Source: a virus
Reading direction: 5' to 3' (one strand)
IMG/VR virus record: IMGVR_UViG_3300026521_000471
Span: 122,518-186,517 of that record
Length of the DNA: 64,000 nucleotides
Shown here: positions 43,072 to 61,119 of the stretch, piece by piece
How positions within the stretch are numbered: position 1 is the first letter of the stretch
Layout: each line of letters starts with the position of its first letter
The notes under the pieces: generated by a model
The model's database searches: none
Seen by the model: the letters and a program-made list of their open reading frames with translations, nothing else
What the model was told of the DNA's origin: nothing
Translations under genes and position numbers: made by a program

Positions 43072-44325
43072 ATGGCTATTTTACAGCTCCATTCTGATGA
43101 TCCAAATTTTGGATACATTATCAAAAAAAACCCAAATTCATCTATGCAAATAAGAAGTATACGTAAAGGTACTGCTTTTACATGGTATTCTCATAATGGT
43201 ACCGACTTTAATATTTATTTTAAAGATGCTGATAATGATGTATCGTTTGGATCGCAAGAATTCGATTATCTAAATATTTCTAAATATAATTCACCGATGT
43301 TTATTATCAATGCAATAAGTGAGTTTTTTTCAAGTACTGTTAGAGAAGAATCAGAATTAGATATAAAAAGTTCAAAATATTTTTATATTAACTTACTTGA
43401 AATCAAAAGAATAAAACAATTAATGGATTTTAAGAAATATTTCCCTGATTTTGAAATTGAAATTACCGAACAAGTTGGGAAAAATTATACTATTAAAGTA
43501 ATAACTGAAAATAGTTGGTTTATGTTATTAAATTATATTAATCTTATGATGATTTTTATTGCATTATCAAGTAACGACTACGTACATTTAGATAGTTCAA
43601 ATATTGAAAAATATCTAAATGCTATGAATCGATTGGATGCACCATTTTTTATACGTTATTTAGTAAGTAGAAATCTTATTAAAAGTAAAAACCAATTTAA
43701 AAAATATAAACAATTACTTGAAAAATCAAAAAGATATAATATCAATATGGCATATGGTAATACGGCTATGCAACGGAAAGACAAAATAGAACGTTTATTA
43801 TCATTTGATAAATCGATTCTTGATATTGGGTGTGGAGAAGGTTTTTATGCTATAGATTTTTCTAAAAAAATAGAAAAATATTCTTATAATGCCATTGACA
43901 TTAATCCTAATCTATTAGAGTCGATCAAGATAAAAGCTTCAAAAAAAGAAATTACAAATATTAATCTCTTTAATAGTCTAGAAGATTTTATAAAGATTTA
44001 CAATGATGAGTTAGTAGATATAATACTAACTGAAGTTATTGAACACATGCCAAAAGATGAATCAAAAAGATTAATAGAGACAGTATTGATGTCTATTAAT
44101 TTTAATACATTCATTATTACCGTACCAAATAAAGACTTTAATATTTTTTATGAATTAGGTGATGAAATGAGACATGATGATCATGACTGGGAACCTACAT
44201 TTGATGAATTTAAAAATTTTATAGCTAATTTTAATAATGATGGTTTATCTTTTGAATTTATAGAAATAGGTGATACTATCGATGGTATCTCTACAAGTAT
44301 CGGTTGTATAATTAAAAAGGTATAA
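43072..44325 (+). CDS. hen1: Hen1-like RNA 3'-terminal 2'-O-methyltransferase (bacterial Hen1 architecture: N-terminal domain plus C-terminal Mg-dependent methyltransferase)
   Basis: C-terminal domain: ILDIGCGEGFYAIDF (SAM motif I), LTEVIEHMPKDE (the Hen1 EVIEH metal motif), MRHDDHDWEPTFDEF (Hen1 HxDHxFEWTxxEF). The ~240-aa N-domain is consistent with the ligase-activating domain. Confidence 0.8.
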   Translation: MAILQLHSDDPNFGYIIKKNPNSSMQIRSIRKGTAFTWYSHNGTDFNIYFKDADNDVSFGSQEFDYLNISKYNSPMFIINAISEFFSSTVREESELDIKSSKYFYINLLEIKRIKQLMDFKKYFPDFEIEITEQVGKNYTIKVITENSWFMLLNYINLMMIFIALSSNDYVHLDSSNIEKYLNAMNRLDAPFFIRYLVSRNLIKSKNQFKKYKQLLEKSKRYNINMAYGNTAMQRKDKIERLLSFDKSILDIGCGEGFYAIDFSKKIEKYSYNAIDINPNLLESIKIKASKKEITNINLFNSLEDFIKIYNDELVDIILTEVIEHMPKDESKRLIETVLMSINFNTFIITVPNKDFNIFYELGDEMRHDDHDWEPTFDEFKNFIANFNNDGLSFEFIEIGDTIDGISTSIGCIIKKV

Positions 44326-46102: not shown

Positions 46103-48793
46103 ATGAATAAAATTAAAACACAAGTACATACTATAATAATGCTTATTGGACCTAGTGGTTCTGGTAAAACAACATTCGCTAATGAAATTCTAATACCCAC
46201 ATTACAAGAATATAAAGGTAGTGGAAATGACAATTTAAAAACAAATATACAATATATTAGTTCTGATGATATTAGAAAAGATATTTTAGGATATAATTAT
46301 AGTAAAATAGATGAAATTATGACTGAAAGTTCAACACAAGCATTTGAAATATTATTTACAAAATTAAGAGCTGTTACTAGTTATCCAATCAATGCTGAAT
46401 TTGTTATTTTAGATACAACTGGATTAAGTGAAAAATTTAGAAATGATGTTTTAGATATAGCAAAAGATAATAATTATAATGTCGATATTATAGTTTTCGA
46501 TTATAAGAATATTGATGAATATCAGAAAAATTTTTCTGATGAAGTTTATCAACAACCTAGTACTAATGGCAAAATTATTTCTAAGCATATAAAAAGATTA
46601 AAAACAGAAACATTAAAAACATTAAAAAAAGGTGTATATAAAAATATTCATAAAATTAAAAATAAAGATTTTCTTTTAGAAGTTGAACAGGAGAATCCAT
46701 ATGATTTAACACCTACTATGTTAAAACCTCTTTATAGTGTAGATGTATGGGATTGGAAAAAATATACTGATAGAATATTAAATAGTACTTATGATTGGAT
46801 TACTATTGGTGATGTTCATGGATGTATTCATGAATTAAAACAATTACTTGAAAAATATGGTTTTATAATTGAAGACAATGAAATCATAGATACAAACAAA
46901 ACAAAAAATATAGGATTGATTTTTGCAGGTGATTTAATTGATAAGTCGTCAGAAGAAGATTTAACTGAAACTATAAGATTTATACATAAAAATATGATAA
47001 AATTTCAAGATCGTTTTCAATTAATATTAGGTAATCATGAAGAGATGGTCTGGAAATGGATAACAAATCATAAAGATTTAGAAATTACTCCAGAACGATT
47101 GGATCAGAAAAAAAGATACTATAATACAGCAATTTTACTAGAGAAAAATGAAGAGTTAAAATCTATGTTTTTAGATATTTTTCATAATATGAAAGGTTGG
47201 GTTAAATTTATAGGATTAAACAAAAGAAGTTTTGTAGTTACACATGCACCATGTGAGGTTAAATATCTCGAAAAAATGGATCGTATTTCATTAAAACGTC
47301 AATATAAATGCGCTAGTAGAAGTAAAAACAAAGATAAGACTAATGATGAACTAACACCATATTTAAAAGAAGAAGCAGTTAATAACCATCCAGTTCACAT
47401 ATTTGGTCATATGGGACAATCATCTGTTAGATCTTTTAAAAATAAAGTTTGTATTGATACAGGCTGTGTATATGGTGGAAGATTAACTGGATACAGTATA
47501 GGATACGGTAAACCATTTATTCAAAGTGTAAAATCATTATCTCCTAAGAGTGCAAGAAACGACTTTGGAAATAATCTATTTGAAGATATAGGTAAAGCTA
47601 TAAAAGAAGTATCTATTGAAGATTTAAATCCATACAACCAAAAAAGATTAGATTATATAGTAAAAAATGGCATAGGATACATAGGAGGTACAATTTCACC
47701 TTCAAATAAAAACATCGAAAAAAATTCACTAGAATCTTTAGATAGTGGACTTAATTATTTCAAAGATAAAGTAGATAGTGTAGTTCTACAACCTAAATAT
47801 ATGGGGTCTAGAGCACAACTGTATCTCTTTAAAGATAATATTGAAAAATGCTATGCTACAAGTAGAAATGGATATAAAATTAGAGAGGACTTAACTGATT
47901 TATTCTCATCTAAATTAATAGAATACAAGCATATTTTTGATATGTATAATGCTGATGAGATAATTATAGATGGTGAATTATTACCATGGGCTCTTTTAGG
48001 AAAAGGTTTGATAGAAACACATTTTAAAACTGCGGATATAGCTATCCAAACAGAAATCGACTTTCTGGATGATAATGGGTTTGATAAGGCTTTTTTAAGT
48101 TTAAAGGATGAATTTAATGAATCAGAATTTTTAAAAGATAAAAATATTTTAGCTAAAAAAGAATTAGCTAAAAAATATGGTCACAAATATCACTCTTATA
48201 AAGATTTAAAATTTGAAATTGATAGATTCATACCTTTAAGTAAACACAAAAAAGCTTGGAAAATTTTCAATAAACAAATAACCCTTTATGGAGATGATAC
48301 AAATACAGATTTTAAAGGTTTTAGATTATTAAAAGTAATATCAAATAACAATATAATCGATTTGGATCTAACCCCTAGCGAACACTTTAAACTATTAAAT
48401 TCAGATGATATTCATATTGTTGATTTCAATGATAAAGACTATTTAGTTAAAGCTGAAAGATGGTATGATGATTTAGTGAGTAATCAAAATATGGAAGGTT
48501 GTGTAATAAAACCGGAAGTAAAGTTATTAGAATCTTGGATTGCTCCATATTTAAAAGTAAGAAATGAAGAATATCTTTCTATCATTTATGGGTATGATTA
48601 TAAATTCCCTGTCAAATTTAATAGATTATTAAATCAAAAAAATATTTCTAAAAAATTAAGACTCTCTATATCAGAGTATAAATTAGGAGAAGAAATGCTT
48701 AAAGCTCCTATGGGTAGTAAAGAACAAATACAGATTATAGCCAATCTATTATTTGAAAATGAAAAAGAAGAAAGCGTCGATCCAAGATTATAA
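46103..48793 (+). CDS. pnkp: bacterial-type polynucleotide kinase-phosphatase-ligase (Pnkp): P-loop 5'-kinase, metallophosphatase, and adenylyltransferase/ligase domains
   Basis: IMLIGPSGSGKTTFAN (kinase P-loop). ITIGDVHGC, IFAGDLIDK and LGNHEE (calcineurin-like phosphatase). C-terminal ...VVLQPKYMGSRAQLY (nucleotidyltransferase KxxG motif I). At 896 aa with this domain order it matches Clostridium-type Pnkp. Confidence 0.85.
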   Translation: MNKIKTQVHTIIMLIGPSGSGKTTFANEILIPTLQEYKGSGNDNLKTNIQYISSDDIRKDILGYNYSKIDEIMTESSTQAFEILFTKLRAVTSYPINAEFVILDTTGLSEKFRNDVLDIAKDNNYNVDIIVFDYKNIDEYQKNFSDEVYQQPSTNGKIISKHIKRLKTETLKTLKKGVYKNIHKIKNKDFLLEVEQENPYDLTPTMLKPLYSVDVWDWKKYTDRILNSTYDWITIGDVHGCIHELKQLLEKYGFIIEDNEIIDTNKTKNIGLIFAGDLIDKSSEEDLTETIRFIHKNMIKFQDRFQLILGNHEEMVWKWITNHKDLEITPERLDQKKRYYNTAILLEKNEELKSMFLDIFHNMKGWVKFIGLNKRSFVVTHAPCEVKYLEKMDRISLKRQYKCASRSKNKDKTNDELTPYLKEEAVNNHPVHIFGHMGQSSVRSFKNKVCIDTGCVYGGRLTGYSIGYGKPFIQSVKSLSPKSARNDFGNNLFEDIGKAIKEVSIEDLNPYNQKRLDYIVKNGIGYIGGTISPSNKNIEKNSLESLDSGLNYFKDKVDSVVLQPKYMGSRAQLYLFKDNIEKCYATSRNGYKIREDLTDLFSSKLIEYKHIFDMYNADEIIIDGELLPWALLGKGLIETHFKTADIAIQTEIDFLDDNGFDKAFLSLKDEFNESEFLKDKNILAKKELAKKYGHKYHSYKDLKFEIDRFIPLSKHKKAWKIFNKQITLYGDDTNTDFKGFRLLKVISNNNIIDLDLTPSEHFKLLNSDDIHIVDFNDKDYLVKAERWYDDLVSNQNMEGCVIKPEVKLLESWIAPYLKVRNEEYLSIIYGYDYKFPVKFNRLLNQKNISKKLRLSISEYKLGEEMLKAPMGSKEQIQIIANLLFENEKEESVDPRL

Positions 48794-49068
48794 TAGTATT
48801 TTTGTATAATTCTAATAAATAATTAGTCATATCGACAAAAGGAGATAATTATGTTACATTCAATTAGTAGATCTTATTTAAATTTTATTCTTACTCGGAT
48901 AGCATTTACGTAAATACATTTATTGAATCTTCTATAAAAAATATCTTTGATTTAGGTGGTGATTTATGAGTTTAATAATCATCTCCTATATAATAAAATG
49001 GTATAAAAAGAAAAAATAGAAGTCAAATCACTATGGTAACATGATTTGTATATTTATCGGATGAAATT

Positions 49069-49407
49069 TCATCTAATTTGATTATCATCCGATATTAAAG
49101 GGTTTACTCGATAACCTTTGTAAATTTTATTTTTTAACGAATCATTCACACAAGCATCATACTTTTTTAAAAACTGATTTGATATTTCTAAATATCTATT
49201 TTGTAATTCATATGATTTTACATTATTAACTTTATTTAAAAAATTTATTACTTCTTTTTTATATATTAAACATGAATCTTTAATATTTCTTTGATCAATT
49301 ATAATTATTTTATTTTTGATATATGAAATCCCTTCAGATGCATTATACCATTGATCATCAGCGTTTAAAAATATTATACTAATTAATATTATTAATATCT
49401 TTTGCAT
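49069..49407 (-). CDS. hypothetical secreted protein (signal peptide)
   Basis: ORF track; N-terminal MQKILIILISIIFLNA. Confidence 0.4.
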   Translation of the reverse strand: MQKILIILISIIFLNADDQWYNASEGISYIKNKIIIIDQRNIKDSCLIYKKEVINFLNKVNNVKSYELQNRYLEISNQFLKKYDACVNDSLKNKIYKGYRVNPLISDDNQIR

Positions 49408-49772
49408 TGTTCAGTATCCTCCATTAATCTTTCTATCGGTTCCCATTTAGCATTTGTACTGATTTTTTTATATTTTTTCTTGAGAGATTGTAATATACTA
49501 TAATTTTCTAAATACTCATCCCATTCCGTATCACTTACTGCACATGGATTATGTTCAGAACGACGCACTATATCTTTCAATATCATCATTTGAGTAATCT
49601 CTATTCGTTCAGTATTTTCCGATATACTATCTAATATACCCTCATAACTAATATACCCACCAATACCGACTGTAATAACAAAAGATAAAAATCCGTATAA
49701 GGCAACGACTGTATTCGTCATTTTATTAAATTTATCAAAAAATGAATTATTATTTTCTTTATTTTTAGACAT
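49392..49772 (-). CDS. hypothetical type-II membrane protein
   Basis: ORF track; a single N-proximal transmembrane helix. Confidence 0.4.
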   Translation of the reverse strand: MSKNKENNNSFFDKFNKMTNTVVALYGFLSFVITVGIGGYISYEGILDSISENTERIEITQMMILKDIVRRSEHNPCAVSDTEWDEYLENYSILQSLKKKYKKISTNAKWEPIERLMEDTEQCKRY

Positions 49773-49816
49773 TTTATTACCTCTATTTTTCTTTATTTAT
49801 ATTTAAGTATTTTTTT

Positions 49817-49824
49817 TGTATAAT
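49817..49824 (+). promoter_or_regulatory. extended -10 promoter TGTATAAT upstream of pncA-rlmN-nadE
   Basis: TTTTTTTGTATAATATAATAT; about 88 nt upstream of ATG 49913. Confidence 0.45.
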
Positions 49825-49912
49825 ATAATATAAATAAAAACACACTTTGTGTATTATTAAAACTGTTATTGGATCTAACACAAGTTAGAATGAATAACTA
49901 AGGAGAACTAAT

Positions 49913-50551
49913 ATGAAAAAAATACTTATAGTAGTAGACTACCAATTTGACTTTGCTAGCCCAACAGGGGCTCTATCAGTACCCAATGCTGATAAAATAG
50001 TTGATAACATCCAATCTTATATCAATGATAAATCGTATGAAAATATAATTTATACTTTTGATACTCATACATCTGATAAATATAATGGTTCTGATGAATC
50101 TAAAATTTTTCCTTCAATTCATTGTGAATTTGGAACAATCGGTTGGAATTTTTATAAAATTAAACCCAGATATAAAAATTGGGATAATTTTATTGCAAAT
50201 CGTGGAATCGATGAAGGTACAGTACCTTTTAACACCTTTATAGTTGAATCGGAAATGTTTTTTACAAAAGATGTTTTTGATATTTGGCAAGGAAATTCAA
50301 TCTTTAAATCTATTTTTACAAATACCTTTAAACCAAAGGACACAATTATAGACATTGTAGGTGTAGCTACAAATTACTGCGTATTTATGAATGTTATGGG
50401 TCTAGTAAAAAATGGTTATACAGTTAATGTTCTTTCAGATGCTGTTGAAGGGATTAAATCATTTCCAGATGGATCAATAGATGATAGTTTTCAAACAAAT
50501 ATCAATGTTATGAAAAATAAAGGTGTAACTTTTTCTGGAGACATAAAATGA
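49913..50551 (+). CDS. pncA: nicotinamidase PncA (isochorismatase/cysteine-hydrolase family)
   Basis: ILIVVDYQFDF (VDxQxDF), catalytic-triad context, and ...VGVATNYCVFMN (nucleophile Cys). Confidence 0.75.
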   Translation: MKKILIVVDYQFDFASPTGALSVPNADKIVDNIQSYINDKSYENIIYTFDTHTSDKYNGSDESKIFPSIHCEFGTIGWNFYKIKPRYKNWDNFIANRGIDEGTVPFNTFIVESEMFFTKDVFDIWQGNSIFKSIFTNTFKPKDTIIDIVGVATNYCVFMNVMGLVKNGYTVNVLSDAVEGIKSFPDGSIDDSFQTNINVMKNKGVTFSGDIK

Positions 50552-51444
50552 TTATGAAAGTAATAGAAAGTTCAGAAGAGAATGTTTGGAAATATATTTT
50601 TAATGATAATGAAATAGTTTTGGAAAGTGTATTATATAAATACGGTTCATTCGATAAAAGAACTGTTATTTGTTGTTCTGTACAAAGTGGTTGTCCGGTT
50701 GGATGTACATTTTGTGGAACAGGTGCAAATTTCTTAAAAAATATTTCATCAGATCAAATAGTTGAGCAAATAACAACTATTTTTAAAGATAAAAATATCG
50801 AGGATATAAACAGTAGATGTGAAAAGCTTCAAATAATGTTTATGAGTATGGGTGAACCATTTCTTAATTACAAAAATGTTAAAGAAGCAATAATTAAATT
50901 GAATAAATTATACCCTAATGCCGACTTATTAATATCTACTGTTGGTATTAATGATGATAAAATTTTTAAAGATTTTATTTCATTATCTAAAATGATTAAA
51001 AAAGTTGGTTTACAATTTAGTATTCATAAATCAAATGATACAGATAGAGATAAATTAATACCCTTTAAAAAGAAATATACACTTAGGGAAATCAGAGATA
51101 GAGGTACTATTTGGCATAAAGAAACAGGGAGACAAGTATATCTCAACTACTGTGTTGATGGTACAAATAATAGTCAAAATGATATTGAGAATCTTAAGAA
51201 TCTCTTTTCTCCAATTATTTTTAATATGACATTTAGTGTTATTTGTGAAGCAGATGAAACAATGAAAGATAGTTCATGTAGAAATTTGAATACGATTAGA
51301 GATTTTGAAAAATCTTTTATTGAAGAAGGGTATAATACCAGAATATTTGATCCTGCTGGACAGGACGATATTGGTGGAGGATGTGGCCAATTATGGTTCG
51401 TTCAAGATTATCTTAAAAATAAAAAAATGAAAGCAGAGGTATAA
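50548..51444 (+). CDS. radical-SAM RNA methyltransferase of the RlmN/Cfr family, lacking the N-terminal domain
   Basis: CCSVQSGCPVGCTFCGTG (CxxxCxxC), FMSMGEPFLN, and C-terminal GQDDIGGGCGQLWF (the second catalytic Cys motif DIDAACGQL of RlmN). Confidence 0.8.
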   Translation: MIMKVIESSEENVWKYIFNDNEIVLESVLYKYGSFDKRTVICCSVQSGCPVGCTFCGTGANFLKNISSDQIVEQITTIFKDKNIEDINSRCEKLQIMFMSMGEPFLNYKNVKEAIIKLNKLYPNADLLISTVGINDDKIFKDFISLSKMIKKVGLQFSIHKSNDTDRDKLIPFKKKYTLREIRDRGTIWHKETGRQVYLNYCVDGTNNSQNDIENLKNLFSPIIFNMTFSVICEADETMKDSSCRNLNTIRDFEKSFIEEGYNTRIFDPAGQDDIGGGCGQLWFVQDYLKNKKMKAEV

Positions 51445-51448
51445 AATT

Positions 51449-52402
51449 ATGGAAAAAATAGAAACACTAACCGATATGGTAGAAGTAATCAGAGAAATAA
51501 AAACACCGACAAGTCAAAAAGCTAATATGGTTGTAGGAAATATTAGAGCACAAATTAAAAATTACGTACAACGTAATAATCTTAAATCACTTGTAGTAGG
51601 TGTGAGTGGGGGTCTTGATTCAGCTGTTGTAGCGGCTCTTTGTCAAGAAGAATTTACAGGAGTACCTCTAATTGGTCTTTCTATTCCTATGAGTTCAACT
51701 AACGCTCACAAAGAACAGGCAGAATGGGTAGGTAATACCTTTTGTACGGCTTTTGAAGAATTCAACTATTGGGATGAAACTTTTCAGTACAATGAAGAAG
51801 AAGGTACTGATATGATGAGTGAAGTATTTAATACCGTTTCAGCAACAGATAAAGTTGCTGAAAAAGCAGGATTTAAAACGGAAGATTTTCCAAAAAATGT
51901 TCTTCAAGGTAATATTAAAGCGAGGCTTAGAATGATAACTCTTTATGACCTTGCAAGAAAAACAAACGGTATGGTTCTTTCAACAGATAACCTTTCTGAA
52001 TTTCAAATGGGATTTTGGACTATTTGTGGTGATGTAGGTGATTTTGGACCTATCCAAAATGTTGGTAAGGGGTTTGAGCTTCCAGCCATAGCAAGAGCTC
52101 TTGGAATAAGAGCAGATATTATCACTCAATCGCCTAGTGATGGACTAATGGTAACTGAAGAAAATACAGATGAGGCTCAACTTGGAGCTAATTATGAGGA
52201 AGTTGATACTATTATGAGTATTTATCTTGGCAATATCAATAAACCAAAAGAAATTATAGATAAACTTAAAAGTAACCTATTTAATATTATTAATGATAAA
52301 AAGAGTGCTAAGAAAATTTCAAATGTAATTACACGTTATGAAAATTCACACTTTAAACGTAATGGTACAATCAACCTTACAAGAGAACAGATCGGAATCT
52401 AA
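51449..52402 (+). CDS. nadE: NH3-dependent NAD+ synthetase NadE
   Basis: LVVGVSGGLDSAVVAALC (PP-loop), KARLRMITLYDLAR, VLSTDNLSEFQMGFWTICGDVGDFGPIQ and QSPSDGL...LGANYEEVD all align with E. coli NadE. Its length and motifs do not fit QueC. Confidence 0.8.
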   Translation: MEKIETLTDMVEVIREIKTPTSQKANMVVGNIRAQIKNYVQRNNLKSLVVGVSGGLDSAVVAALCQEEFTGVPLIGLSIPMSSTNAHKEQAEWVGNTFCTAFEEFNYWDETFQYNEEEGTDMMSEVFNTVSATDKVAEKAGFKTEDFPKNVLQGNIKARLRMITLYDLARKTNGMVLSTDNLSEFQMGFWTICGDVGDFGPIQNVGKGFELPAIARALGIRADIITQSPSDGLMVTEENTDEAQLGANYEEVDTIMSIYLGNINKPKEIIDKLKSNLFNIINDKKSAKKISNVITRYENSHFKRNGTINLTREQIGI

Positions 52403-52427
52403 ATTCCGATCAAAAAAAAGGATATTT

Positions 52428-52772
52428 ATGGTTTACCGTTCTAAAGCTGATTTAGAGGAAATTAGAAAGTCACAAAATAATATTAAATTATATGCTGTAT
52501 ATTCACATCTTGCATTACCCGTATTTAAAATCAAATCATTAAGTAAAAAATATGTATATTGGGAAGATAATTCAAAACATCCATATCCTAGTAATTCAGC
52601 AGGTTATATATTAACAGACAATTTATATGAAGGTTGGAAAATATATAAAGATACTTATAATAAACGGAAAAAATTTATTGAAGACCAATATAAATCAGAA
52701 ATACAAAAATTAACAATGGCAGAATCTATACTAGATTCTCTTTCAAAATCAAATCCAGAACTTTTTATCTGA
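52428..52772 (+). CDS. hypothetical protein
   Basis: The ORF-track start at 52338 overlaps nadE. ATG 52428 follows AAAAGGA. Confidence 0.35.
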   Translation: MVYRSKADLEEIRKSQNNIKLYAVYSHLALPVFKIKSLSKKYVYWEDNSKHPYPSNSAGYILTDNLYEGWKIYKDTYNKRKKFIEDQYKSEIQKLTMAESILDSLSKSNPELFI

Positions 52773-52801
52773 TTTTAAGTATAATTCCATTATAATCCAC
52801 T

Positions 52802-53122
52802 ATGTTAAATAATTTAAAATTAAAGTTCATTTATACATTTATCAATTTTAAAATACAAAGGGTAGGACATATGTTAAATCTCAAAATAGATCCAGATAAT
52901 AAATCCATAAAATTATCTATTTTATTACTTGGTGAAGATGAACCATTAGATATAGATATTAAATCTTATGAACTAATAGAAGAAAATAATAAATCTTATA
53001 TAAAAATAAATGATGTAGAAACTAGTAAAACATGGATGAATATCCTAATATTAGAATTTGTTGAAAATAATAAGATAGAAATTTCAAATAAAATTTCAAA
53101 ACTATTGAAAATAATTATATAA
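52802..53122 (+). CDS. hypothetical protein
   Basis: ORF track. Confidence 0.3.
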   Translation: MLNNLKLKFIYTFINFKIQRVGHMLNLKIDPDNKSIKLSILLLGEDEPLDIDIKSYELIEENNKSYIKINDVETSKTWMNILILEFVENNKIEISNKISKLLKIII

Positions 53123-53135
53123 AAAAGGACATAGC

Positions 53136-53339
53136 ATGACACATAATGAATTAACAAAATTAAATAATTTAGTAGAAAACCTAAATACAAAATTTAATGA
53201 AAATAAAACATTAGAGGGTTTTATACGTTTTACGAAAAAAATTAATATGGTTGAGACAGTTTCATTTAAACAAGTTAAGTATGAGATTGATTTAATGTAT
53301 GAACGTCTTTTAGAAGAACAAGAAGAAAATACATGGTAA
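53136..53339 (+). CDS. hypothetical small protein
   Basis: ORF track. Confidence 0.3.
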   Translation: MTHNELTKLNNLVENLNTKFNENKTLEGFIRFTKKINMVETVSFKQVKYEIDLMYERLLEEQEENTW

Positions 53340-53348
53340 AGGATAACT

Positions 53349-54488
53349 ATGAAAAAAAGTATGAGAGAAGAATCTTTAGGAACTAGACTTAAAGGTTATG
53401 AAAGAGAGTTTGAATCAGTAATCGATCCAAAGGATTTTATTATTTGTAGAATTGATGGACATAAATTTAGCAAATATACAAAAGGTATGAAAAAACCATT
53501 TGATAAAATGTTGTCAAATACAATGGAGGAAACTACTAAAGACCTTGTTGAAAAATTTGGAGCCGTAACGGGCTATACGCAATCTGATGAAATTTCATTG
53601 GTTTTTGTCCCTCAATTCAAAGAAAGATTAATACCTATTGAAACCAAAGAATTATTTGTTCTTAATGATGAAGAAGCAACCTATAAAGTTTATGACAAAG
53701 AATACAACTTGCTAGGTTCATTAGATATTAGTTATGAAGATATGGATGATGAATATTTCAGTATTAACTTTTGGGTAGTTTCTGATACTAATGATGAAAT
53801 TATCGATCAATGTTCTTGGCAAAATAGAAACTCTAAAACTGAGGCTAAAGCATTAGAAACGCTTTTAAAGTATATCATTAAGAAAGTTGAAATAACAAAT
53901 GAGCAAATTTTTGGAGGAAGAGTTCAGAAATTAACTTCTTTGATTGCGGCATATACTACTATGCAGTTTAATAAACACTTTTCTAAATTTTTAGAAAAAA
54001 CATACGAAGATTATGAAGAAAAATTAGAAAAGGGCGAAATCGATACGAATAGTTTAGAGGCCATGAAATACCTTAAAACAATGGATGAAAAAGTAGGTAA
54101 TGCTTGGTTTGATGCTAGAGTTTATGGCGTATCATCTAAAGAAGAAGCATTTAACAGTATTATGTGGCGAATTCGTGATGCCGAGAAGAACTCTAGATCA
54201 ATGTTTGCACAGACATACTGCTCTCATAAATCGCTATTAGGAAAAAATGGTCTTGAACAGGTTGAATACTGTAAAGAAACTACTGGTAAAGATTGGGAAG
54301 AAGTTGAAGATAAATACAAATATGGCATTTTAGTTAAAAAAGAAAAATATCTTAAACCTATTTCTGAAGGGACTATGGATTATGCTCAAAATGATTTTGT
54401 AGAAAGATCCAGAATTATTAGTTGGGCTGAAAAAATTACTACTTTCTCTGGTGAAAAAGTTGAAATGGTTGTTAGGAAATATAAATGA
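53349..54488 (+). CDS. Thg1-like protein (tRNA-His guanylyltransferase family 3'-5' nucleotidyltransferase)
   Basis: FIICRIDGHKFSKYTKGMKKPFDKMLSNTMEETTKDLVEKFGAVTGYTQSDEISLVF aligns with Thg1 (VVVRLDGRNFHRF...GQSDEYSFVF), including both metal-binding carboxylate motifs. Confidence 0.8.
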   Translation: MKKSMREESLGTRLKGYEREFESVIDPKDFIICRIDGHKFSKYTKGMKKPFDKMLSNTMEETTKDLVEKFGAVTGYTQSDEISLVFVPQFKERLIPIETKELFVLNDEEATYKVYDKEYNLLGSLDISYEDMDDEYFSINFWVVSDTNDEIIDQCSWQNRNSKTEAKALETLLKYIIKKVEITNEQIFGGRVQKLTSLIAAYTTMQFNKHFSKFLEKTYEDYEEKLEKGEIDTNSLEAMKYLKTMDEKVGNAWFDARVYGVSSKEEAFNSIMWRIRDAEKNSRSMFAQTYCSHKSLLGKNGLEQVEYCKETTGKDWEEVEDKYKYGILVKKEKYLKPISEGTMDYAQNDFVERSRIISWAEKITTFSGEKVEMVVRKYK

Positions 54489-54759: not shown

Positions 54760-55188
54760 ATGAAACCTACGTCTATTGGAATTATTCCCTATCGGTTTTC
54801 TGAAAACGGGGTATCTATTCTTTTAATGCGGTCTTCTAAGAAAAATGATAGATTCGATTTTGTTAAAGGTAAGATAGAACCTTATGAAACTAGAGTAGAC
54901 TGTTGTTTACGAGAAGTTCAGGAAGAAATAGGTGTTTCACTTTCCAAAGAAGATTTAGACTTTTCTGTTAAGCAATACAATAAGAAGAAAAATATTGAAT
55001 TATTCTTTATTCATTGGGATAAATATTTGTATAAGCAATTTAAATTAGATGAACGAGAAGTTTTTGAACTAAAATGGTTTAATTTGAATGAAATACCTAC
55101 AATTTCTCAGAACCAACGTTTGATTATTACGAAAATAAATGAAAGATTTAACAAATTACATCAACTACTAAGGAGTAACTATGTTTGA
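54760..55188 (+). CDS. Nudix hydrolase
   Basis: Nudix box GKIEPYETRVDCCLREVQEEIGV. Confidence 0.6.
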   Translation: MKPTSIGIIPYRFSENGVSILLMRSSKKNDRFDFVKGKIEPYETRVDCCLREVQEEIGVSLSKEDLDFSVKQYNKKKNIELFFIHWDKYLYKQFKLDEREVFELKWFNLNEIPTISQNQRLIITKINERFNKLHQLLRSNYV

Positions 55189-55326: not shown

Positions 55327-55848
55327 ATGAACGCCTTGTTCTTAGATATTGATGGAGTTTTAAATAATTACCATCTTAAAGAACCATTTACTTTTCCAAA
55401 CGGTTATACACAGCAACCAGTTAAAGGCACTCAAAATAAATGGAATGGTTTAATGGGTATGGATTATGATAAAGTTAATTTATTAAATGAAATACTTGAA
55501 AGTAACGAGTGGAAAGTAATAATATCAAGCTCTTGGTATTATTCGGATAGTACTGTTAATGCGTTAAAACATTTTGGTTTTAAATATTCAGATAGAATTA
55601 TTGGTGGTACAAATAGAAAATCATATGGTAGAGGAAAACAAATCCTAGATGCTGTTGAAGATTTTAAAGTAACAGATTTTATTATTTTAGATGATGAACT
55701 ATTTGATATTACTGGAAACTCTGAATTTGTTAGTAATAATATGCGAGAAATATTTAGAGATAGAGTGTTTAAAACAAATCCATACATAGGTTTAACTGAA
55801 AAGACAGTCTCTAATATTTTAAAAAGATTAGACTATTTTATAATTTAA
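55327..55848 (+). CDS. HAD-like phosphatase
   Basis: LFLDIDGVLN (motif I) and FIILDDE (motif IV-like). Confidence 0.5.
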   Translation: MNALFLDIDGVLNNYHLKEPFTFPNGYTQQPVKGTQNKWNGLMGMDYDKVNLLNEILESNEWKVIISSSWYYSDSTVNALKHFGFKYSDRIIGGTNRKSYGRGKQILDAVEDFKVTDFIILDDELFDITGNSEFVSNNMREIFRDRVFKTNPYIGLTEKTVSNILKRLDYFII

Positions 55849-57367: not shown

Positions 57368-58771
57368 ATGGCTTTATTAACTTACGATGAAGTATTAGAA
57401 ATCACAAAAATAAATGAAACTTTTAAAATGAAACACCAAAAAATAGGTAACACAGAAATTGCAATGTGTACTTATTTTTTAGCAAATGCAGGTGATTTTT
57501 TTGATGCAAAATTAGATGGCTCTATGGTTAGAGCCACAGAATTAAGAGGTATAACATTTGTAAAAGCTCCAAATTCAGACTGGAAAACATATTTGTTTAT
57601 CGATAAATTTTTTAATATCGGTCAAACAAATGGAACTAATATAACAAATATGGAACTTTCTATCAATGACTCAACTGAAATTTGTAATATTAATAAACTT
57701 TTTATCGATGAAAATGAGAAAACATATCGTGCAATAGATTTAAAGTTAAATATGATTGTTGCTGAATTTGATAGAAATACTGAAACTCATGGGGATTTTT
57801 TTCAAATTTTATCACTAGATAAAAAAGTTTTACCTACATTGAAACCTGAAAATTCTTGGATGTATGAGGATGTAAAAGATTTAGAAATTGTAAGAATTGC
57901 AAATAAAGAAGATGGATCCGCAATAAGATTTCTTTTAATTGAAGGAAAATTAGTGGCTAAAACAAAATTTTCTTTTGAATCAGAACAATGCAAATTAGCT
58001 ATGGAAATAGTTGAAAAAGATCCTAAACTTAAAGCATTTATTTTAACAACTTTAGAGTTTGGATATGCAGCAATTTTTGAAATAGTTTCACCATTTAATA
58101 AAATCGTTTTAACATATCCAGAAACATCTCTTAGATTGTTGCAACTAAGAGATGAAAATAATGATGGGTTATATCTAAATATATATGATAATACATTAGT
58201 AAAAGCATTTAATATCTTGACTGCCAATCAAGAACCTTTATACACACTTGATGAGTTACTTAAATTAAAAGAAACCGTTGAAGATAAAGAAGGTTGGGTA
58301 ATTACATTTGAAAATGGAAAAATGGCAAAGGTAAAAACTGATTGGTATATGTCACTTCATGGTATTTTAACTGATGGGTTAAAAGAACATAAAATAATTG
58401 AAAAGGTTTTAGACGAAACGATTGATGATACTATAGCAATGATACCAGAAGAAAATATTGAAGAACGAGATTTTATTGATGGTATCTCTGAAATTATAAT
58501 TAATCATGTAAATCATTTAGTGTCAGATGCAGAAGCTAAATTTAAAAATTCATGGAATGGAAATAAAAAAGAGTTAGCACTAAAATTTAAGGATGATAAA
58601 CGTGCTTTTCCATATATAATGAGTTTTGCAAATGGAAAAAATATTGAAGAAATTGAAAAACAAGTTATAGATAGAGTTAAATTTGAATGTAGACGTTTAG
58701 AAATGGCTAAACAATACCTTAAAAATTTAGGTTTTGACAAAGAACTCGAAATAAAAATTGAGGATGATTAA
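57368..58771 (+). CDS. rnl1: RNA ligase 1 (T4 Rnl1 / gene 63-like tRNA repair ligase)
   Basis: ELRGITFVKAPNSDWKTYLFIDKFFN, ANKEDGSAIRF (motif I KxDGS), EFGYAAIFEIVSPFNKIVLTYPE and KEGWVITFENGKMAKVKTDWYMSLHG align block by block with T4 Rnl1. Confidence 0.85.
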   Translation: MALLTYDEVLEITKINETFKMKHQKIGNTEIAMCTYFLANAGDFFDAKLDGSMVRATELRGITFVKAPNSDWKTYLFIDKFFNIGQTNGTNITNMELSINDSTEICNINKLFIDENEKTYRAIDLKLNMIVAEFDRNTETHGDFFQILSLDKKVLPTLKPENSWMYEDVKDLEIVRIANKEDGSAIRFLLIEGKLVAKTKFSFESEQCKLAMEIVEKDPKLKAFILTTLEFGYAAIFEIVSPFNKIVLTYPETSLRLLQLRDENNDGLYLNIYDNTLVKAFNILTANQEPLYTLDELLKLKETVEDKEGWVITFENGKMAKVKTDWYMSLHGILTDGLKEHKIIEKVLDETIDDTIAMIPEENIEERDFIDGISEIIINHVNHLVSDAEAKFKNSWNGNKKELALKFKDDKRAFPYIMSFANGKNIEEIEKQVIDRVKFECRRLEMAKQYLKNLGFDKELEIKIEDD

Positions 58772-58773: not shown

Positions 58774-58941
58774 ATGAAATACGGTTTTAGTTTATTTGAA
58801 TTAATTATTGTAGTTGTAATATTGGGAATTCTAGCAGCAGTTGCTATTCCTAGATTATCAAATTCTTCATCAAATAATGATAAAATTTCATACAAAAAAA
58901 TAATTTTTACTAATGGTGATGGTGGATCCGCCGAGAATTGA
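58774..58941 (+). CDS. short type IV pilin/pseudopilin-like ORF (55 aa): prepilin leader and N-terminal hydrophobic helix only
   Basis: MKYG|FSLFELIIVVVILGILAAVAIP is a canonical class III signal peptide with Glu at +5. The 3' end overlaps the tmRNA 3' terminus. Not in ORF track because it is under 60 aa. Confidence 0.35.
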   Translation: MKYGFSLFELIIVVVILGILAAVAIPRLSNSSSNNDKISYKKIIFTNGDGGSAEN

Positions 58942-59301
58942 ACTCGGGTCTGCCACTACTTCCATTTAAATCTCATTTACAAGTTTAGTTTGATTTTTAA
59001 TACTTTAATACTTAGATAACCAAACAAATCGGTATTAAAGGCACTTGATATAATTTTCGTCTAAAGGTATCAAGTTTAACTTTAGCTTATCTATTTTTTA
59101 TTATACACTCTGTATTTATTAGTAAATAGACAACTAATAAACTGAGTGATTCCGGGCTCCCAGAGGGAGGATTAAGCAGCTACTCTCGCAGTCTGTGGAA
59201 TATAAAGTTTTGTGTTTGCATTTAAGCTTTTTTGATGATTAAGTCATCACTCTACTTGCAATTTAAATTTCTTATAGCAACATCGATCCCAATTCGGACC
59301 C
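58920..59301 (-). ncRNA. ssrA: tmRNA (SsrA), 382 nt
   Basis: Minus-strand 5' end GGGUCCGAAUUGGGAUCGAUG resembles the tmRNA 5' end GGGGCUGAUUCUGGAUUCGAC. The 3' end is ...CCGAGUUCAAUUCUCGGCGGAUCCACCA (T-arm plus acceptor plus CCA). The acceptor stem pairs with a G3:U70 wobble (alanine identity). An internal tag ORF (59219..59172) reads GCA AAC ACA AAA CUU UAU AUU CCA CAG ACU GCG AGA GUA GCU GCU UAA, giving ANTKLYIPQTARVAA, followed by a CUCCC/GGGAG helix. Confidence 0.8.
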
Positions 59302-59619: not shown

Positions 59620-61119
59620 ATGGCAAAATTTAACCAAGGTACTAAAAGTATCCCAAATAGTAAAAATATGGCTGGAGGGGTATCATATGATCGCCCAATA
59701 AAAAAAGAGGTTGCGACTGTTGTTTTAAACTCTATGCTTAATGGTGATTCATATTATGAAAAAGAAGGTGAACGTTTAAAACGAATTGAAACTCTTATCA
59801 CTACATCAAAGTCTGATGCTGAGTTTGTAGCAAAAGCTATGGTGTTTACTAGAACAAATGGTCGTCTTAGAAGTATTTCACATTTCATGGCAAATATTTT
59901 AGCAGAAAATGTAAAAGGTAGTGACTTTTTACGTTCAGCATTAACAAAAGCTATTGTAAGACCGGATGATATGACAGAAATGTTATCACTTTGGGATACA
60001 AGAAATCCAAATAAAATGGTTCCGAATTCACTTAGAAGAGCCTTTAAGAAAGCTTTGGAAACTAAATTTGATGAATATCAATTTCGTAAATATGCTCAAC
60101 CAAAATCAAAAGTGAAACTAAAAGATGTCGTTAAACTAGCACATCCTTCACCTAAGAATTTTGATGATGAAACTATTTTTAAAAGAGTTATCGAAGATCA
60201 ATTAAAGGCTGTTGAAACAGCACAAACTATCAATGCATCTAAAACTGGTGAAGATCGAGTTGAAGCATATATGAAAGAAATTAAATCTGGTAAAATGGGT
60301 TATATGGCAGCATTAAAAAATATTAGAACATTGATGGAAAATAATATTTCAGAAGATGACTTAAAACAATGGTCTAATTTTATAACTGATCCTAAAAGGG
60401 TACAAAAATCAATGGTACTTCCATTTAGATTTGTTGATGCATGGAATGCTGTAAAAGATTTACCTATTAATGAATTTAAGAAAAATATTGTTAAGAAAGC
60501 ACTTGAGAGAGCTTTTGCCCTATCAGCTGGAAATACAAATATTGCTTCTGATGATGAAAAAGTGGCTATTTTACTTGATGAATCAGGTTCTATGGGCGGA
60601 TATTCAAATAATGACCGTAAAACACCATTTTATATTGGTAAAGTATTATCAGCTGCGATGAAAGTAGGTATGGATGATGATAAGTGTCTGTTTTATACTT
60701 GGGCAGATACATGTACAAGAAGAGATATAAAAGGTTTGTCATCTTTTGATTTTATCAATAATTTAAATACTAGAGGTGGAGGTACTGATGTATCAGCTCC
60801 TTTAAAAGAGTTAATTAAAACAAAAACATTTGTTGATAAAATTATAATCTTTAGTGATATGCAGATGTATGGTGGATGGGGAAATATTGGAGATCAACTC
60901 AAAAATTATTTAAAAACATATCGTAAAGAAGTCAATCCAAATGTAAAAGTATTATTTTGGAATTTAGAAGGATATGGTGGTGGTTCACCATTAGATATTG
61001 AAAAAACATCTGATATTTTTGAAGTAGCTGGTTTTTCAGATAGCATGCTTCAAATTATACCTAAATTATGGAGTGATAAAGATTTTTTAATTAAAGAGAT
61101 TGAAGCTATATCACTTTAA
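59620..61119 (+). CDS. rsr: Ro60-related protein (Rsr): TROVE domain plus vWA domain
   Basis: N-terminal NMAGGVSYDRPIKKEVATVVLNSMLNGDSYYEKEGERL (TROVE), KLKDVVKLAHPSP (the Ro60 RLSHLKP region), vWA MIDAS VAILLDESGSMGG and TRGGGTD, IIFSDMQ, and C-terminal VAGFSDSMLQII (Ro60 CGFDTGALDVI). Confidence 0.8.
   Translation: MAKFNQGTKSIPNSKNMAGGVSYDRPIKKEVATVVLNSMLNGDSYYEKEGERLKRIETLITTSKSDAEFVAKAMVFTRTNGRLRSISHFMANILAENVKGSDFLRSALTKAIVRPDDMTEMLSLWDTRNPNKMVPNSLRRAFKKALETKFDEYQFRKYAQPKSKVKLKDVVKLAHPSPKNFDDETIFKRVIEDQLKAVETAQTINASKTGEDRVEAYMKEIKSGKMGYMAALKNIRTLMENNISEDDLKQWSNFITDPKRVQKSMVLPFRFVDAWNAVKDLPINEFKKNIVKKALERAFALSAGNTNIASDDEKVAILLDESGSMGGYSNNDRKTPFYIGKVLSAAMKVGMDDDKCLFYTWADTCTRRDIKGLSSFDFINNLNTRGGGTDVSAPLKELIKTKTFVDKIIIFSDMQMYGGWGNIGDQLKNYLKTYRKEVNPNVKVLFWNLEGYGGGSPLDIEKTSDIFEVAGFSDSMLQIIPKLWSDKDFLIKEIEAISL

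Follow-up and report, generated by a model that had tools for sequence, protein, structure and literature searches.

The small gene that lies between a nicotinamidase-like gene and an NAD+ synthetase gene in a 64-kb stretch of a 224-kb jumbo-phage contig (the window, as analysed here) encodes a functional-looking class A radical-SAM C-methyltransferase, whose sequence retains the whole catalytic apparatus of RlmN and Cfr. By the same sequence comparisons it is an orthologue of neither. It belongs to a sister clade that is widespread and, it appears, has yet to be described; this clade has shed its RNA-anchoring domain, has a rebuilt substrate pocket and travels with NAD+ salvage genes. Our best reading of the whole, held tentatively, is that this is a distinct clade of class A radical-SAM C-methylases, coupled to NAD+ salvage and acting on an NAD-related nucleotide rather than on A2503.

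The protein of 298 residues is encoded on the plus strand at 50548..51444. An earlier note on this DNA had listed a CxxxCxxC motif, a GEP motif and a C-terminal GGGCGQL, and all three are present and invariant in 46 family members: the [4Fe-4S]/SAM motif CPVGCTFC, a CX3CX2C arrangement of C49, C53 and C56 (50692..50715, plus strand); the MGEP motif (M101–P104; 50848..50859, plus strand), part of a family-wide invariant MSMGEP; and GGGCGQL (G276–L282; 51373..51393, plus strand). Within the latter, C279 corresponds to the methyl carrier, C355 in RlmN and C338 in Cfr. Cys42 (codon 50671..50673, plus strand), the counterpart of RlmN C118 and Cfr C105 that resolves the covalent intermediate, is invariant in the 46 members and in nine RlmN/Cfr references, and E26, equivalent to E105 of RlmN, is invariant in the 46 members. 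The full set of five catalytic cysteines (C42, C49, C53, C56 and C279) plus Glu26 is therefore present, and it is shared with Cfr (C105, C112/116/119, C338, E91) as well as with RlmN, which further resembles the protein in its CX3CX2C and MGEP motifs, in a β-sheet extension ahead of the core and in a C-terminal helix.

Both sequence and fold identify RlmN and Cfr as the nearest relatives, in line with the RlmN/Cfr-type assignment made earlier. Pfam Radical_SAM is matched with 32.1 bits against a cutoff of 29.5, Fer4_12 being the sole other Pfam domain. The RlmN model TIGR00048 aligns over positions 73–342 of 355 (1e-35) at 123.3 bits, where the cutoff is 290, and the Cfr models score 92.6 bits against 530 (NF000424, 3e-26) and 87.2 against 550 (TIGR04432). 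The profile search placed the protein in no radical-SAM family that modifies something other than RNA, and the PHROGs gave only a weak match to a group of unknown function (phrog_24834, 2.7e-10). An AlphaFold2 model has a mean pLDDT of 87.8, dipping near GGGCGQL, where the ten-residue blocks around 271–290 average 57 and 74. It shows the partial TIM barrel, the β′ extension and the C-terminal strand and loop of the RlmN/Cfr fold, and its top Foldseek matches are RlmN (6fz6, 3rfa, 5hr6) and Cfr (9p0p) at E values of 2e-17 to 1e-12; for RlmN (PDB 3RFA, 5HR6) the common fold is reflected in an E value of 1e-16 and a TM score of about 0.78. SuiB is the next family at 4e-6. The best 120 sequence matches share 61–100% identity, and 70 clusters at 50% identity are found with E ≤ 1e-30; because of these conserved relatives and the confident model a chance open reading frame is excluded. 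From sequence and model together, membership in the class A radical-SAM methyltransferases is very probable.

The clade comprises proteins of about 300 residues, mainly encoded on phages and other mobile elements. It was found on 268 IMG/VR contigs and in 81 of 185,579 species genomes, and it was absent from the 72,556 plasmids searched, where cfr genes abound. Hosts of the cultured phages are mostly Gammaproteobacteria. The protein from the window is 24–29% identical to RlmN and Cfr references (24% to E. coli RlmN, 27% to Cfr). In a neighbour-joining tree, a distance-based method applied here with a small sample of nine references, 100 clade representatives form one monophyletic group at the end of a long stem, and all nine RlmN and Cfr sequences lie outside it; this is the phylogeny that the earlier note had proposed as a check.

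The clade differs from its relatives in the machinery for holding RNA. The HhH2 N-terminal domain (RlmN_N, PF21016) is absent: Pfam gives no match, TIGR00048 aligns only from model position 73, and the reading frame cannot be extended upstream. The loss itself and the length of 298 residues had been noticed before, with the missing part put at about 100 residues; this size is too large, as in the references 59–93 residues precede the point where the alignment begins (64 for Cfr, 80 for RlmN of E. coli). A supply of the domain in trans was sought with its HMM, which matched no open reading frame of the window and none of 171 related loci. The β-sheet extension that follows the missing domain is kept (model strands 2–7, 13–19 and 24–31). 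In Cfr the N-terminal domain binds at the H90–H92 junction, and rRNA binding is described as depending crucially on it (PMC13001441).

Residues of Cfr and RlmN that contact A2503 and the RNA backbone were taken from the same source (PMC13001441), and at six positions of the E. coli enzyme the clade carries replacements: T116 to V40, R206 to A125, R207 to Q, E or D, T209 to L128, N307 to S230 and R344 to F267. All but one of these replacements are invariant among the 46 members, and several of the original residues are invariant among the nine references. The loop around R206 is four residues shorter than in RlmN, five residues are inserted after STxGI, and NLIPWNP has become FSVICEADE. Compared with Cfr (PDB 9P0P and the cryo-EM complex of PMC13001441), the serines that grip the phosphate of U2504 (S103, S151, S153 and S187) are replaced by V, Q, M and L, R327 by F and N288 by S, and W101 by R38, as in RlmN. 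Three Cfr contact positions are retained where RlmN differs, namely Y97 (Y32), R249 (R195) and Y252 (Y/F198). The clade core is also more acidic, with a median net charge of −3.5 and a pI of 5.7, while reference cores have a median charge of about +2. Sub-cutoff scores, a separate clade and the loss of both anchor domain and RNA contacts leave RlmN/Cfr orthology unsupported, and hence also the action on A2503 or A37 that had been raised earlier. Cfr-type antibiotic resistance likewise depends on that orthology and is not supported.

The genomic setting provides the second line of evidence. On the plus strand a PncA-like gene (49913..50551), the radical-SAM gene and nadE (51449..52402) follow each other in tight packing. 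The ATG at 50548 overlaps the TGA of the PncA-like gene as ATGA (junction AAAATGATTATG), and nadE begins after a gap of four nucleotides (TAA-AATT-ATG), exactly as had been described. Each gene is preceded by a Shine-Dalgarno-like element: AAGGAG, eight nucleotides upstream of the ATG, for the PncA-like gene, GGAGA for the radical-SAM gene and AGAGG for nadE. The three genes are probably co-transcribed in this phage. That earlier proposal of a single transcript fits the gene spacing and rests on it, since promoter and terminator scans found no signal above shuffled sequence (34 versus 36.6 and 1 versus 1.0, respectively). Rfam models detected neither a riboswitch nor any further RNA element in the vicinity of the operon, PADLOC matched no known defence-system component, and a search for near-identical DNA among 50,697 phage records returned no match.

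The flanking genes bear out the placement of the radical-SAM gene between nicotinamidase-like and NAD synthetase functions. The upstream product (212 residues) is an isochorismatase-fold hydrolase by Pfam (Isochorismatase, 2.3e-14), and its match to the NCBIfam nicotinamidase/pyrazinamidase PRK11609 (7.6e-13, 48.7 bits) stays below the curated cutoff of 174; the family-level assignment as a nicotinamidase is probable, drawing on the Pfam match and the NAD gene context. D9, D50, H52, H70, C71 and C156 are invariant in an alignment with 13 homologues from NAD operons (14 sequences in all), and we take them to match the catalytic Asp and Cys and the metal ligands of M. tuberculosis PncA. A Lys occupies the TKD/KG position in this protein and in most rows of the alignment. 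NadE (317 residues; Pfam NAD_synthase 3.1e-43; TIGR00552 142.8 bits, cutoff 63.65; PHROG 11189, NAD synthetase) consists of the synthetase domain only. It has no CN_hydrolase (glutaminase) domain and is therefore of the NH3-dependent type. Of the deamidated route the window has only the first step, PncA, and the last, NadE; among its open reading frames no homologue of a PRTase, Adps or NMNAT was found, and so neither Adps with Namat nor Nampt with Nmnat.

Is this neighbourhood incidental, as the earlier note had treated it? The placement is real, and comparison across genomes makes it the defining recurrent context of the clade. The fetched flanks of clade genes were compared across 103 lineages. 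Seventeen of these have an NAD gene at most 300 nt away, and 21 have one at most 1.5 kb away. The latter are 21 of the 27 lineages that have an NAD gene anywhere in the flanks (binomial p 6e-11). Unbiased clustering of neighbours returned NAD genes only at its top: PRTase in 19 lineages, PncA in 13, NadE in 10, Nudix/NrtR in six and Adps in five. PncA, PncB/Nampt/Namat, Adps, NadM, NadE, NadA and NrtR are the sole recurrent neighbours across the 103 lineages, and clade members with an NAD gene next to them turn up in all parts of the family tree.

The arrangements extend beyond phages. The chromosome of Ornithinimicrobium murale carries pncB-pncA-X-nrtR with 4-nt overlaps, X being the clade gene; an alphaproteobacterial MAG has nadM-pncA-pncB-nadE-X, and in an archaeal MAG nadA lies directly upstream. 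Three Saccharibacteria lineages place the clade gene divergently from pncA-pncB and beside nrtR. The intergenic stretch that both sides share contains a conserved palindrome, TAGTGT-N7-ACACTA, as a candidate operator. These loci in Ornithinimicrobium and Saccharibacteria recall the regulons of NrtR, the Nudix-related ADPR-responsive repressor. Two phage pathways of NAD+ reconstitution were reported in 2024, NARP1 with Adps and Namat and NARP2 with Nampt and Nmnat (Osterman et al., bioRxiv 10.1101/2024.02.11.579819). Clade genes directly adjoin NARP1 genes in Vibrio phages (locus L033) and NARP2 genes, including NadM-Nudix with Nampt, in five loci (L043, L049, L073, L078 and L098). The pncA and nadE genes of the window match this logic, in which NAD+ is rebuilt from nicotinamide, although a radical-SAM gene belongs to neither described pathway and the 64 kb hold neither gene pair. 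Taken together, these neighbourhoods suggest that the clade is likely coupled to NAD+ salvage or reconstitution genes.

This coupling has bounds. About 74% of the lineages have no NAD gene in the fetched flanks, and among phage PncA loci the clade gene is present in only two of 41 lineages, so that it is not a core salvage step. Ten of those 41 contain PNK-HD, so that NAD and RNA-repair genes co-locate with each other in phages, and part of the NAD signal could for this reason reflect a shared accessory island.

What reaction might such an enzyme perform? As the whole catalytic apparatus is kept, ping-pong chemistry as in RlmN and Cfr appears most likely. The methyl group of SAM would be transferred to Cys279, a 5′-deoxyadenosyl radical would abstract a hydrogen atom to leave a Cys-CH2 radical, and this would attack a heteroaromatic ring at an sp2 carbon before Cys42 resolves the adduct. 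We infer that the substrate is not A2503 of 23S rRNA and may be a nucleotide of the NAD pathway or derived from NAD. Candidate targets are NAD+, NaAD or a derivative of ADP-ribose, methylated on the adenine or possibly on the pyridinium ring, and also RNA ends linked to NAD. For phages the enzyme could be an optional add-on to NAD+ reconstitution during their conflict with NAD+-depleting host immunity.

In its strongest form, this proposal would make the clade the first radical-SAM C-methylase of NAD+ or of a nucleotide derived from it (NaAD, ADP-ribose, cyclic ADPR as an immune signal, or the NAD-RNA cap), with RlmN/Cfr chemistry directed at a substrate that is not RNA or is an RNA end. Phages would use it beside NAD+ reconstitution so that the cofactor pool or immune signals become refractory to NADase/TIR defences, and some bacteria would keep it in NrtR-controlled salvage operons. 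We regard this as possible, with considerable doubt. To our knowledge no characterised enzyme besides RlmN and Cfr methylates adenine at an unactivated sp2 carbon by way of a protein-bound methylene radical, every characterised member of this pair of families acts on RNA adenosines, and we know of no small-nucleotide precedent for a class A radical-SAM methylase. Enzymes of this type are slow and spend two molecules of SAM in each turnover, so that a macromolecule or a scarce molecule would be a better match for them than an NAD+ pool in the millimolar range.

A serious rival, if a somewhat unlikely one, is that the protein methylates C2 or C8 of adenosines in tRNA or small RNAs within a phage island for RNA repair and translation protection, the NAD genes being co-located counter-defence genes and not partners. 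Repaired tRNAs or those encoded by the phage would have the methyl group re-installed or added at an A37-like site of the anticodon loop, for example restoring decoding or blocking renewed cleavage by host anticodon nucleases. The homologue RlmN is annotated in E. coli to methylate tRNA A37 as well as rRNA A2503, the Cfr-like Y32, R195 and Y198 are retained, and the surroundings in the window are suggestive. All on the plus strand, there are Hen1, the RNA 3′-end 2′-O-methyltransferase (43072..44325; Pfam Hen1_N 1.5e-64 and a methyltransferase domain), a Pnkp-type polynucleotide kinase of 896 residues with a PNKP ligase domain (46103..48793; PNKP_ligase 3.4e-31, AAA_33), a Thg1-like 3′-5′ nucleotidyltransferase (53349..54488; Thg1 4.8e-27, PHROG 4717 1.4e-55), a HAD_SAK_2 phosphatase, a domain of RNA-repair proteins (55327..55848; PF18143 2.1e-18), a T4 Rnl1-type RNA ligase (57368..58771; RNA_lig_T4_1 6.1e-13) and a Ro60/TROVE-like protein (59620..61119; TROVE 5.9e-16, vWA_Ro60). 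A tmRNA gene lies on the minus strand (58920..59301; ARAGORN, Rfam RF00023 at 115.5 bits). The Pnkp orthologue in locus L005 has a Metallophos domain too. The window also contains a NUDIX hydrolase gene (54760..55188, plus strand; Pfam NUDIX 7.2e-16, with weak MutT and NAD+ diphosphatase matches).

Elsewhere, the order in locus L006 is Rnl1, PNK/HD, RlmNL, Rnl2 and the CCA-adding enzyme, the clade gene of Stenotrophomonas phage ANB28 sits inside a tRNA gene cluster, and 19 of 52 loci have tRNA genes no more than 10 kb away, with tmRNA genes in two further loci besides the window. The likeness to Pnkp/Hen1 and T4-type tRNA repair is one of physical neighbourhood, in the window and in some other phages; we know of no radical-SAM component described in those systems. 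Across lineages the RNA-repair association is weaker and more distal than that with NAD genes: RNA-repair genes lie within 10 kb in 18 of 103, within 1.5 kb in seven of these 18 (a marginal enrichment, p 0.04), and within 300 nt in two, versus 17 for NAD genes. Action on tRNA would also leave the pncB/pncA/nrtR operons of cellular chromosomes and the Saccharibacteria arrangement unexplained, and it has to accommodate the loss of the HhH2 domain and of conserved basic and polar contacts to the RNA backbone.

The gene might instead be tied specifically to neither NAD nor RNA repair, being a mobile accessory gene with another target (DNA adenine or another metabolite, for instance) that lands in the same variable regions of large phage genomes. 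About 60% of lineages do have neither kind of gene in the fetched flanks, neighbours are mostly small open reading frames of unknown function, and the clade gene is optional in NAD operons. Chance insertion would hardly produce 4-nt overlaps with several NAD pathways, NrtR operons in cells and a spread over the whole tree, so we consider this account improbable. A true RlmN or Cfr analogue, methylating C2 or C8 of 23S A2503, remodelling host ribosomes and possibly conferring resistance to antibiotics of the peptidyl-transferase centre, would agree with the nearest relatives and with the three Cfr-like residues, but it is most improbable given that the domain anchoring Cfr to the H90–H92 junction is missing, that H90 contacts of the R206/R207 type have become Ala and acidic or amide residues in a shortened loop, that scores fall far below both families' cutoffs, that the plasmids searched lack the clade and that hosts of the cultured phages are expected to encode RlmN already.

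The searchable literature yielded no account of the clade or of its coupling to NAD genes, no paper combining RlmN, phage and RNA repair, and none combining NrtR with radical SAM; queries on phage-encoded RlmN radical SAM, or on radical SAM with nicotinamidase and NAD synthetase in phage, gave off-topic matches only. Neither the NARP paper (10.1101/2024.02.11.579819) nor the survey of viral NAD-ADPr systems by Iyer and Aravind mentions radical SAM or RlmN. The features of the clade point to a new substrate class for RlmN/Cfr chemistry and to an unrecognised accessory component of the phage–host conflict over NAD+. RlmN is a housekeeping enzyme, whereas clade genes occur in NAD salvage and mobile-element contexts, and Cfr is a major multidrug-resistance determinant. 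Annotation pipelines label clade members ‘23S rRNA (adenine2503-C2)-methyltransferase’ or ‘RlmN’. This label is probably wrong, and in phage therapy screens it could lead to misreading as a resistance gene.

Three fusion proteins were also considered as possible clues to function. An HD/dGTPase fusion (P0187) was discarded, being a singleton with a radical-SAM part that falls among canonical RlmN proteins having the N-terminal domain, and an RlmN-Apt fusion (P0410) is irrelevant to the clade, being a cellular RlmN beside adenosine deaminase. A NUDIX fusion (P0122) is likewise a singleton cluster; it was kept, as supporting evidence only, because it is located within a cluster of RlmNL-Nudix, Nampt and NMNAT.

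Three co-directional genes on the plus strand form a compact unit in this AT-rich stretch (GC about 27%), which belongs to a 224,467-bp metagenomic contig where the identical radical-SAM protein is recorded (P0001). A pncA-like gene encoding an isochorismatase-fold protein (49913-50551) is followed by RlmNL, the gene of the 298-residue RlmN/Cfr-type radical-SAM protein (50548-51444), and by nadE (51449-52402), which encodes an NAD+ synthetase that lacks a glutaminase domain. Reading the sequence confirmed the ATGA overlap of the first two genes and the 4-nt gap before nadE, and each gene is preceded by a Shine-Dalgarno-like element. Since a scan for promoter and terminator consensus sites returned no more of them than shuffled sequence, it is the gene spacing that suggests co-transcription. 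A perfect palindrome with a 9-bp stem, GATCGGAAT-TTAG-ATTCCGATC (52390-52411), spans the nadE stop codon. It is flagged as terminator-like on the minus strand only and might mark the end of the transcript or a protein-binding site.

The identity of nadE is clear (TIGR00552, 142.8 bits, above the cutoff of 63.65). The pncA-like protein matches the Pfam isochorismatase family at 2.3e-14, while its match to the nicotinamidase model PRK11609 is weak (48.7 bits; cutoff 174). Aligned with 13 homologues encoded in NAD operons, it shares with all of them D9, D50, H52, H70, C71 and C156, which correspond to the catalytic Asp and Cys and the metal ligands of M. tuberculosis PncA.

For RlmNL the best family models are RlmN (TIGR00048, 1e-35) and Cfr (3e-26). 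All RlmN/Cfr motifs named in the earlier note are present, and the resolving cysteine (RlmN C118, Cfr C105) has its equivalent in Cys42. A confident AlphaFold2 model built from 39 homologues (pLDDT 87.8, pTM 0.88) retrieves only RlmN and Cfr structures from the PDB with Foldseek at E-values of 2e-17 to 1e-12, the next family being SuiB at 4e-6. The alignment to the 355-position RlmN model begins at model position 73, and nine references for RlmN and Cfr, drawn from annotated records, carry 59-93 residues ahead of RlmNL residue 1 (Cfr 64, E. coli RlmN 80). Cfr is held at the H90-H92 junction by an N-terminal segment of HhH2 fold, which is followed by a three-strand beta extension (PMC13001441, a cryo-EM preprint of the Cfr-rRNA complex). 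RlmNL is predicted to begin at this extension, with model strands at residues 2-7, 13-19 and 24-31. The absence of an N-terminal domain was thus recognized correctly in the earlier note; its size of about 100 residues has to be revised to about 60-90, comprising the HhH2 domain only. The reading frame cannot be extended upstream, and a search of the window and of 171 related loci gave no ORF resembling the missing domain.

A status as RlmN or Cfr orthologue, in contrast, did not hold. RlmNL scores 123 bits against an RlmN cutoff of 290 and 93 bits against a Cfr cutoff of 530, and shares 24-29% identity with each of the nine references. Neighbour joining places 100 representatives of the short proteins together in a single clade with a long stem, and all references fall outside it. 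Public records label orthologues as 'ribosomal RNA large subunit methyltransferase N' or, for Stenotrophomonas phage BUCTxx99 (H3) and Xanthomonas phage JGB6 (H4), as 'prohibitin family protein / SPFH Band 7'; both labels are probably mis-annotations.

How the clade differs from RlmN and Cfr was analyzed by projecting the RNA contacts listed for Cfr (PMC13001441) onto an alignment of the clade and the references. As judged from this alignment, the residues needed for the ping-pong radical methylation of RlmN/Cfr are intact and invariant, the set in RlmNL being E26, C42, C49/53/56 and C279. The clade lacks several RNA-backbone contacts in addition to the RNA-anchoring domain, as positions with little or no variation in RlmN/Cfr are exchanged for other residues, which are themselves invariant in the clade. 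Thus, E. coli R344 / Cfr R327, touching the ribose O4' of A2503, is F267, while N307 / N288, touching the A2503 phosphate, is S230. T116 / S103 and T209 / S187, which touch the 3'-O and the U2504 phosphate, are V40 and L128, and R206 / R184 and R207 / R185, which touch the H90 backbone, are A125 and Q/E/D within a loop that is four residues shorter. Y32, R195 and Y/F198 retain the Cfr pattern. The clade core is also somewhat more acidic (median net charge -3.5, pI 5.7) than the reference cores, which lie at about +2. The predicted pocket is rebuilt rather than degraded, and this points to a substrate that is defined but different from that of RlmN/Cfr.

The clade is widespread in viruses. Among the best 120 database matches to RlmNL, at 61-100% identity, nearly all have 290-310 residues and a few are longer. 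At 50% identity there are 70 representative clusters at E<=1e-30, mostly of 280-320 residues, and full-length RlmN/Cfr proteins first appear at about 1e-28. Members occur on 268 IMG/VR viral contigs and, at 44-49% identity to RlmNL, in cultured phages of Vibrio, Aeromonas, Salmonella, Stenotrophomonas and Xanthomonas among others, where annotations range from hypothetical through 'RlmN' to 'prohibitin'. Only 81 of 185,579 species-representative genomes contain one, mostly on MAG contigs, a few on isolate chromosomes, and others in Saccharibacteria and archaeal MAGs. Plasmids yielded no member, their matches being Cfr or RlmN at <=31% identity. No description of the clade or of a radical-SAM gene in NAD salvage operons was found in the searchable literature, PHROGs offers only a family of unknown function, and PADLOC gives no match. 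Chemistry and fold were known before; what is new is the architecture, the genomic association and probably also the substrate.

To describe this association, the 171 loci were pooled and reduced to 103 lineages by grouping their radical-SAM proteins at 80% identity, and the flanks were searched with HMMs from annotated seed genes. NAD-metabolism genes lie within 300 nt of the radical-SAM gene in 17 lineages, within 1.5 kb in 21 and within the fetched flanks in 27; the corresponding numbers for RNA-repair genes are 2, 7 and 18. Placement within 1.5 kb in 21 of the 27 NAD-positive lineages compares with about 19% expected under uniform placement (binomial p 6e-11), and the 7 of 18 for RNA repair give p 0.04. 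When all genes up to 4 kb away were clustered without bias, only NAD genes ranked at the top: NAPRT/NAMPT-family phosphoribosyltransferases (19 lineages), PncA (13), Nudix/NrtR (6), two types of NadE (5 each), Adps (5) and NadM-Nudix (4). Curated models confirm a Nampt-type enzyme (PRK09198, 635 bits) and a bifunctional NadM-Nudix (432 bits), which constitute the NARP2 pair, as well as true PncB (TIGR01513, 407-448 bits), NadE, NadA and NrtR (NUDIX plus NrtR_WHD).

The arrangement varies between lineages. It reads Adps-Namat-RlmNL in Vibrio phages, PNK/HD-RlmNL-Adps-Namat at locus L033, and NadM-Nudix followed at some distance by Nampt-RlmNL at L043, L049, L073 and L078. RlmNL precedes a glutamine-type NadE at L102 and on related MAG contigs assigned to Firmicutes, of which several come from gut samples. 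The chromosome of Ornithinimicrobium murale carries pncB-pncA-RlmNL-nrtR with 4-nt overlaps, an alphaproteobacterial MAG nadM-pncA-pncB-nadE-RlmNL ahead of an RND efflux operon, and an archaeal MAG nadA-RlmNL. In three Saccharibacteria lineages the gene is divergent from pncA-pncB and adjoins nrtR-nadE. The intergenic region there contains a conserved palindrome, TAGTGT-N7-ACACTA (L140 7836-7949; also upstream of RlmNL in L152 and L142), with an ACACT(A/T)AC repeat upstream; the palindrome may be an operator for NrtR. Members adjacent to NAD genes are scattered across the entire clade tree, and the pncA-RlmNL-nadE unit of the window is thus one compact form of a recurrent theme. The clade is coupled to NAD genes by an adjacency that is conserved yet rearranged in unrelated taxa.

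On a single contig, L098 (2043-3449), an RlmNL-type protein carries a fused NUDIX domain whose Nudix box is intact; Nampt and an NMNAT without Nudix follow. It looks as if the module normally found on NadM had been transferred to the radical-SAM protein; as a singleton cluster, the fusion may be an assembly or frameshift artefact. A different fusion, of an RlmN-type protein with adenine phosphoribosyltransferase next to an adenosine deaminase gene (L180 5005-6453; also L181 and L182, three metagenomic contigs), is of the cellular RlmN type and unrelated to the short clade.

The reverse view limits the link. Phage PncA loci from 41 lineages have NadE (26), a PRTase (31) or an Adps/Prs-like gene (20) as companions and a radical-SAM gene of this type in only 2, so that RlmNL is an optional accessory of NAD operons rather than a salvage step. 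The 64-kb window itself contains no PRTase or NMNAT. PNK-HD lies near PncA in 10 of the 41 lineages. In large phages, NAD genes thus tend to occur in the same islands as RNA-repair genes, and this may account for some of the RNA-repair signal around RlmNL, or vice versa. In L005 (496 kb), the closest large relative of the window phage, the operon genes share an island and stand apart. This island has a second radical-SAM gene (8295-9281, 328 residues, weak MoaA/viperin-like matches at about 1e-11) that is absent from the window.

What might such an enzyme do? We propose that RlmNL C-methylates a heteroaromatic ring of an NAD-pathway or NAD-derived molecule, which by homology would be adenine. 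In Cfr, the backbone of the C-terminal loop makes the adenine N1/N6 contacts (PMC13001441), and this loop is retained in the clade with a one-residue insertion. Phages rebuild NAD+ through NARP1 and NARP2 (10.1101/2024.02.11.579819), and phage RlmNL would aid in the conflict with NAD+-depleting defences. Taken as a whole, from RlmN/Cfr chemistry and NAD-gene coupling to substrate and role, this proposal is a tentative one. Enzymes of the RlmN/Cfr type turn over slowly, so a scarce target would fit better than the bulk NAD+ pool, for example a signalling nucleotide or an NAD-linked RNA end.

A tRNA or small RNA as target is a serious rival, even if we consider it rather unlikely, because of the company the gene keeps. 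The operon is embedded in a dense island of RNA-repair and RNA quality-control genes: Hen1 (43072-44325), a Pnkp-type kinase with a PNKP ligase domain (46103-48793), a Thg1-like enzyme (53349-54488), a NUDIX protein (54760-55188), a HAD_SAK_2 phosphatase (55327-55848), Rnl1 (57368-58771), a tmRNA gene on the minus strand (58920-59301; ARAGORN; Rfam RF00023, 115.5 bits) and a Ro60/TROVE protein (59620-61119). In another phage RlmNL is flanked by PNK/HD and Rnl2, a CCA-adding enzyme is encoded close by, and the genes of PnuC and a NadR-like kinase lie 3-4 kb upstream; in a T5-like Stenotrophomonas phage RlmNL sits inside a tRNA gene cluster. That the enzyme has some other target and is merely co-located with NAD and RNA-repair genes has a smaller though real chance; about 60% of lineages show neither context in the fetched flanks. 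Methylation of A2503 in rRNA, whose ribose and phosphate contacts are among those exchanged in the clade, is very improbable.

The repair and quality-control set at 43072-61119 is unusually complete for a phage. Its tmRNA gene, with the tag peptide ANTKLYIPQTARVAA predicted by ARAGORN, directly adjoins the Ro60-like gene, beside which Rfam gave no Y-RNA-like match; L043 and L084 also have a tmRNA gene near the radical-SAM gene. Within P0274, which is the clade's most abundant cluster and occurs on contigs as long as 470 kb, RlmNL is found close to genes for a Ro60-vWA-like DUF2828/DUF7788 protein, a ThiF-family protein, a reverse transcriptase and RNase H (L099 12394-13938, 18418-20587). Between the repair and quality-control genes of the window, several ORFs of 200-380 residues (44328-45212, 45500-46093, 56146-57297) have no Pfam, PHROG or PADLOC match.

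Elsewhere in the window, sub-threshold intein/Hint-domain matches occur in two helicase ORFs, within one of ResIII/Helicase_C type (22537-23946, minus strand) and where a DnaB-like one ends (26613-28034, plus strand); the DnaB-like ORF may run on past the intein. A PIN-PhoH fusion is encoded at 20493-21920 on the minus strand (PhoH 1.1e-46, PIN_4 1.4e-13). Finally, the phage encodes a 725-residue dCache-GGDEF-EAL protein (29334-31511; EAL 3.9e-66, GGDEF 9.1e-31), a viral example of an enzyme that links c-di-GMP turnover to a sensor.
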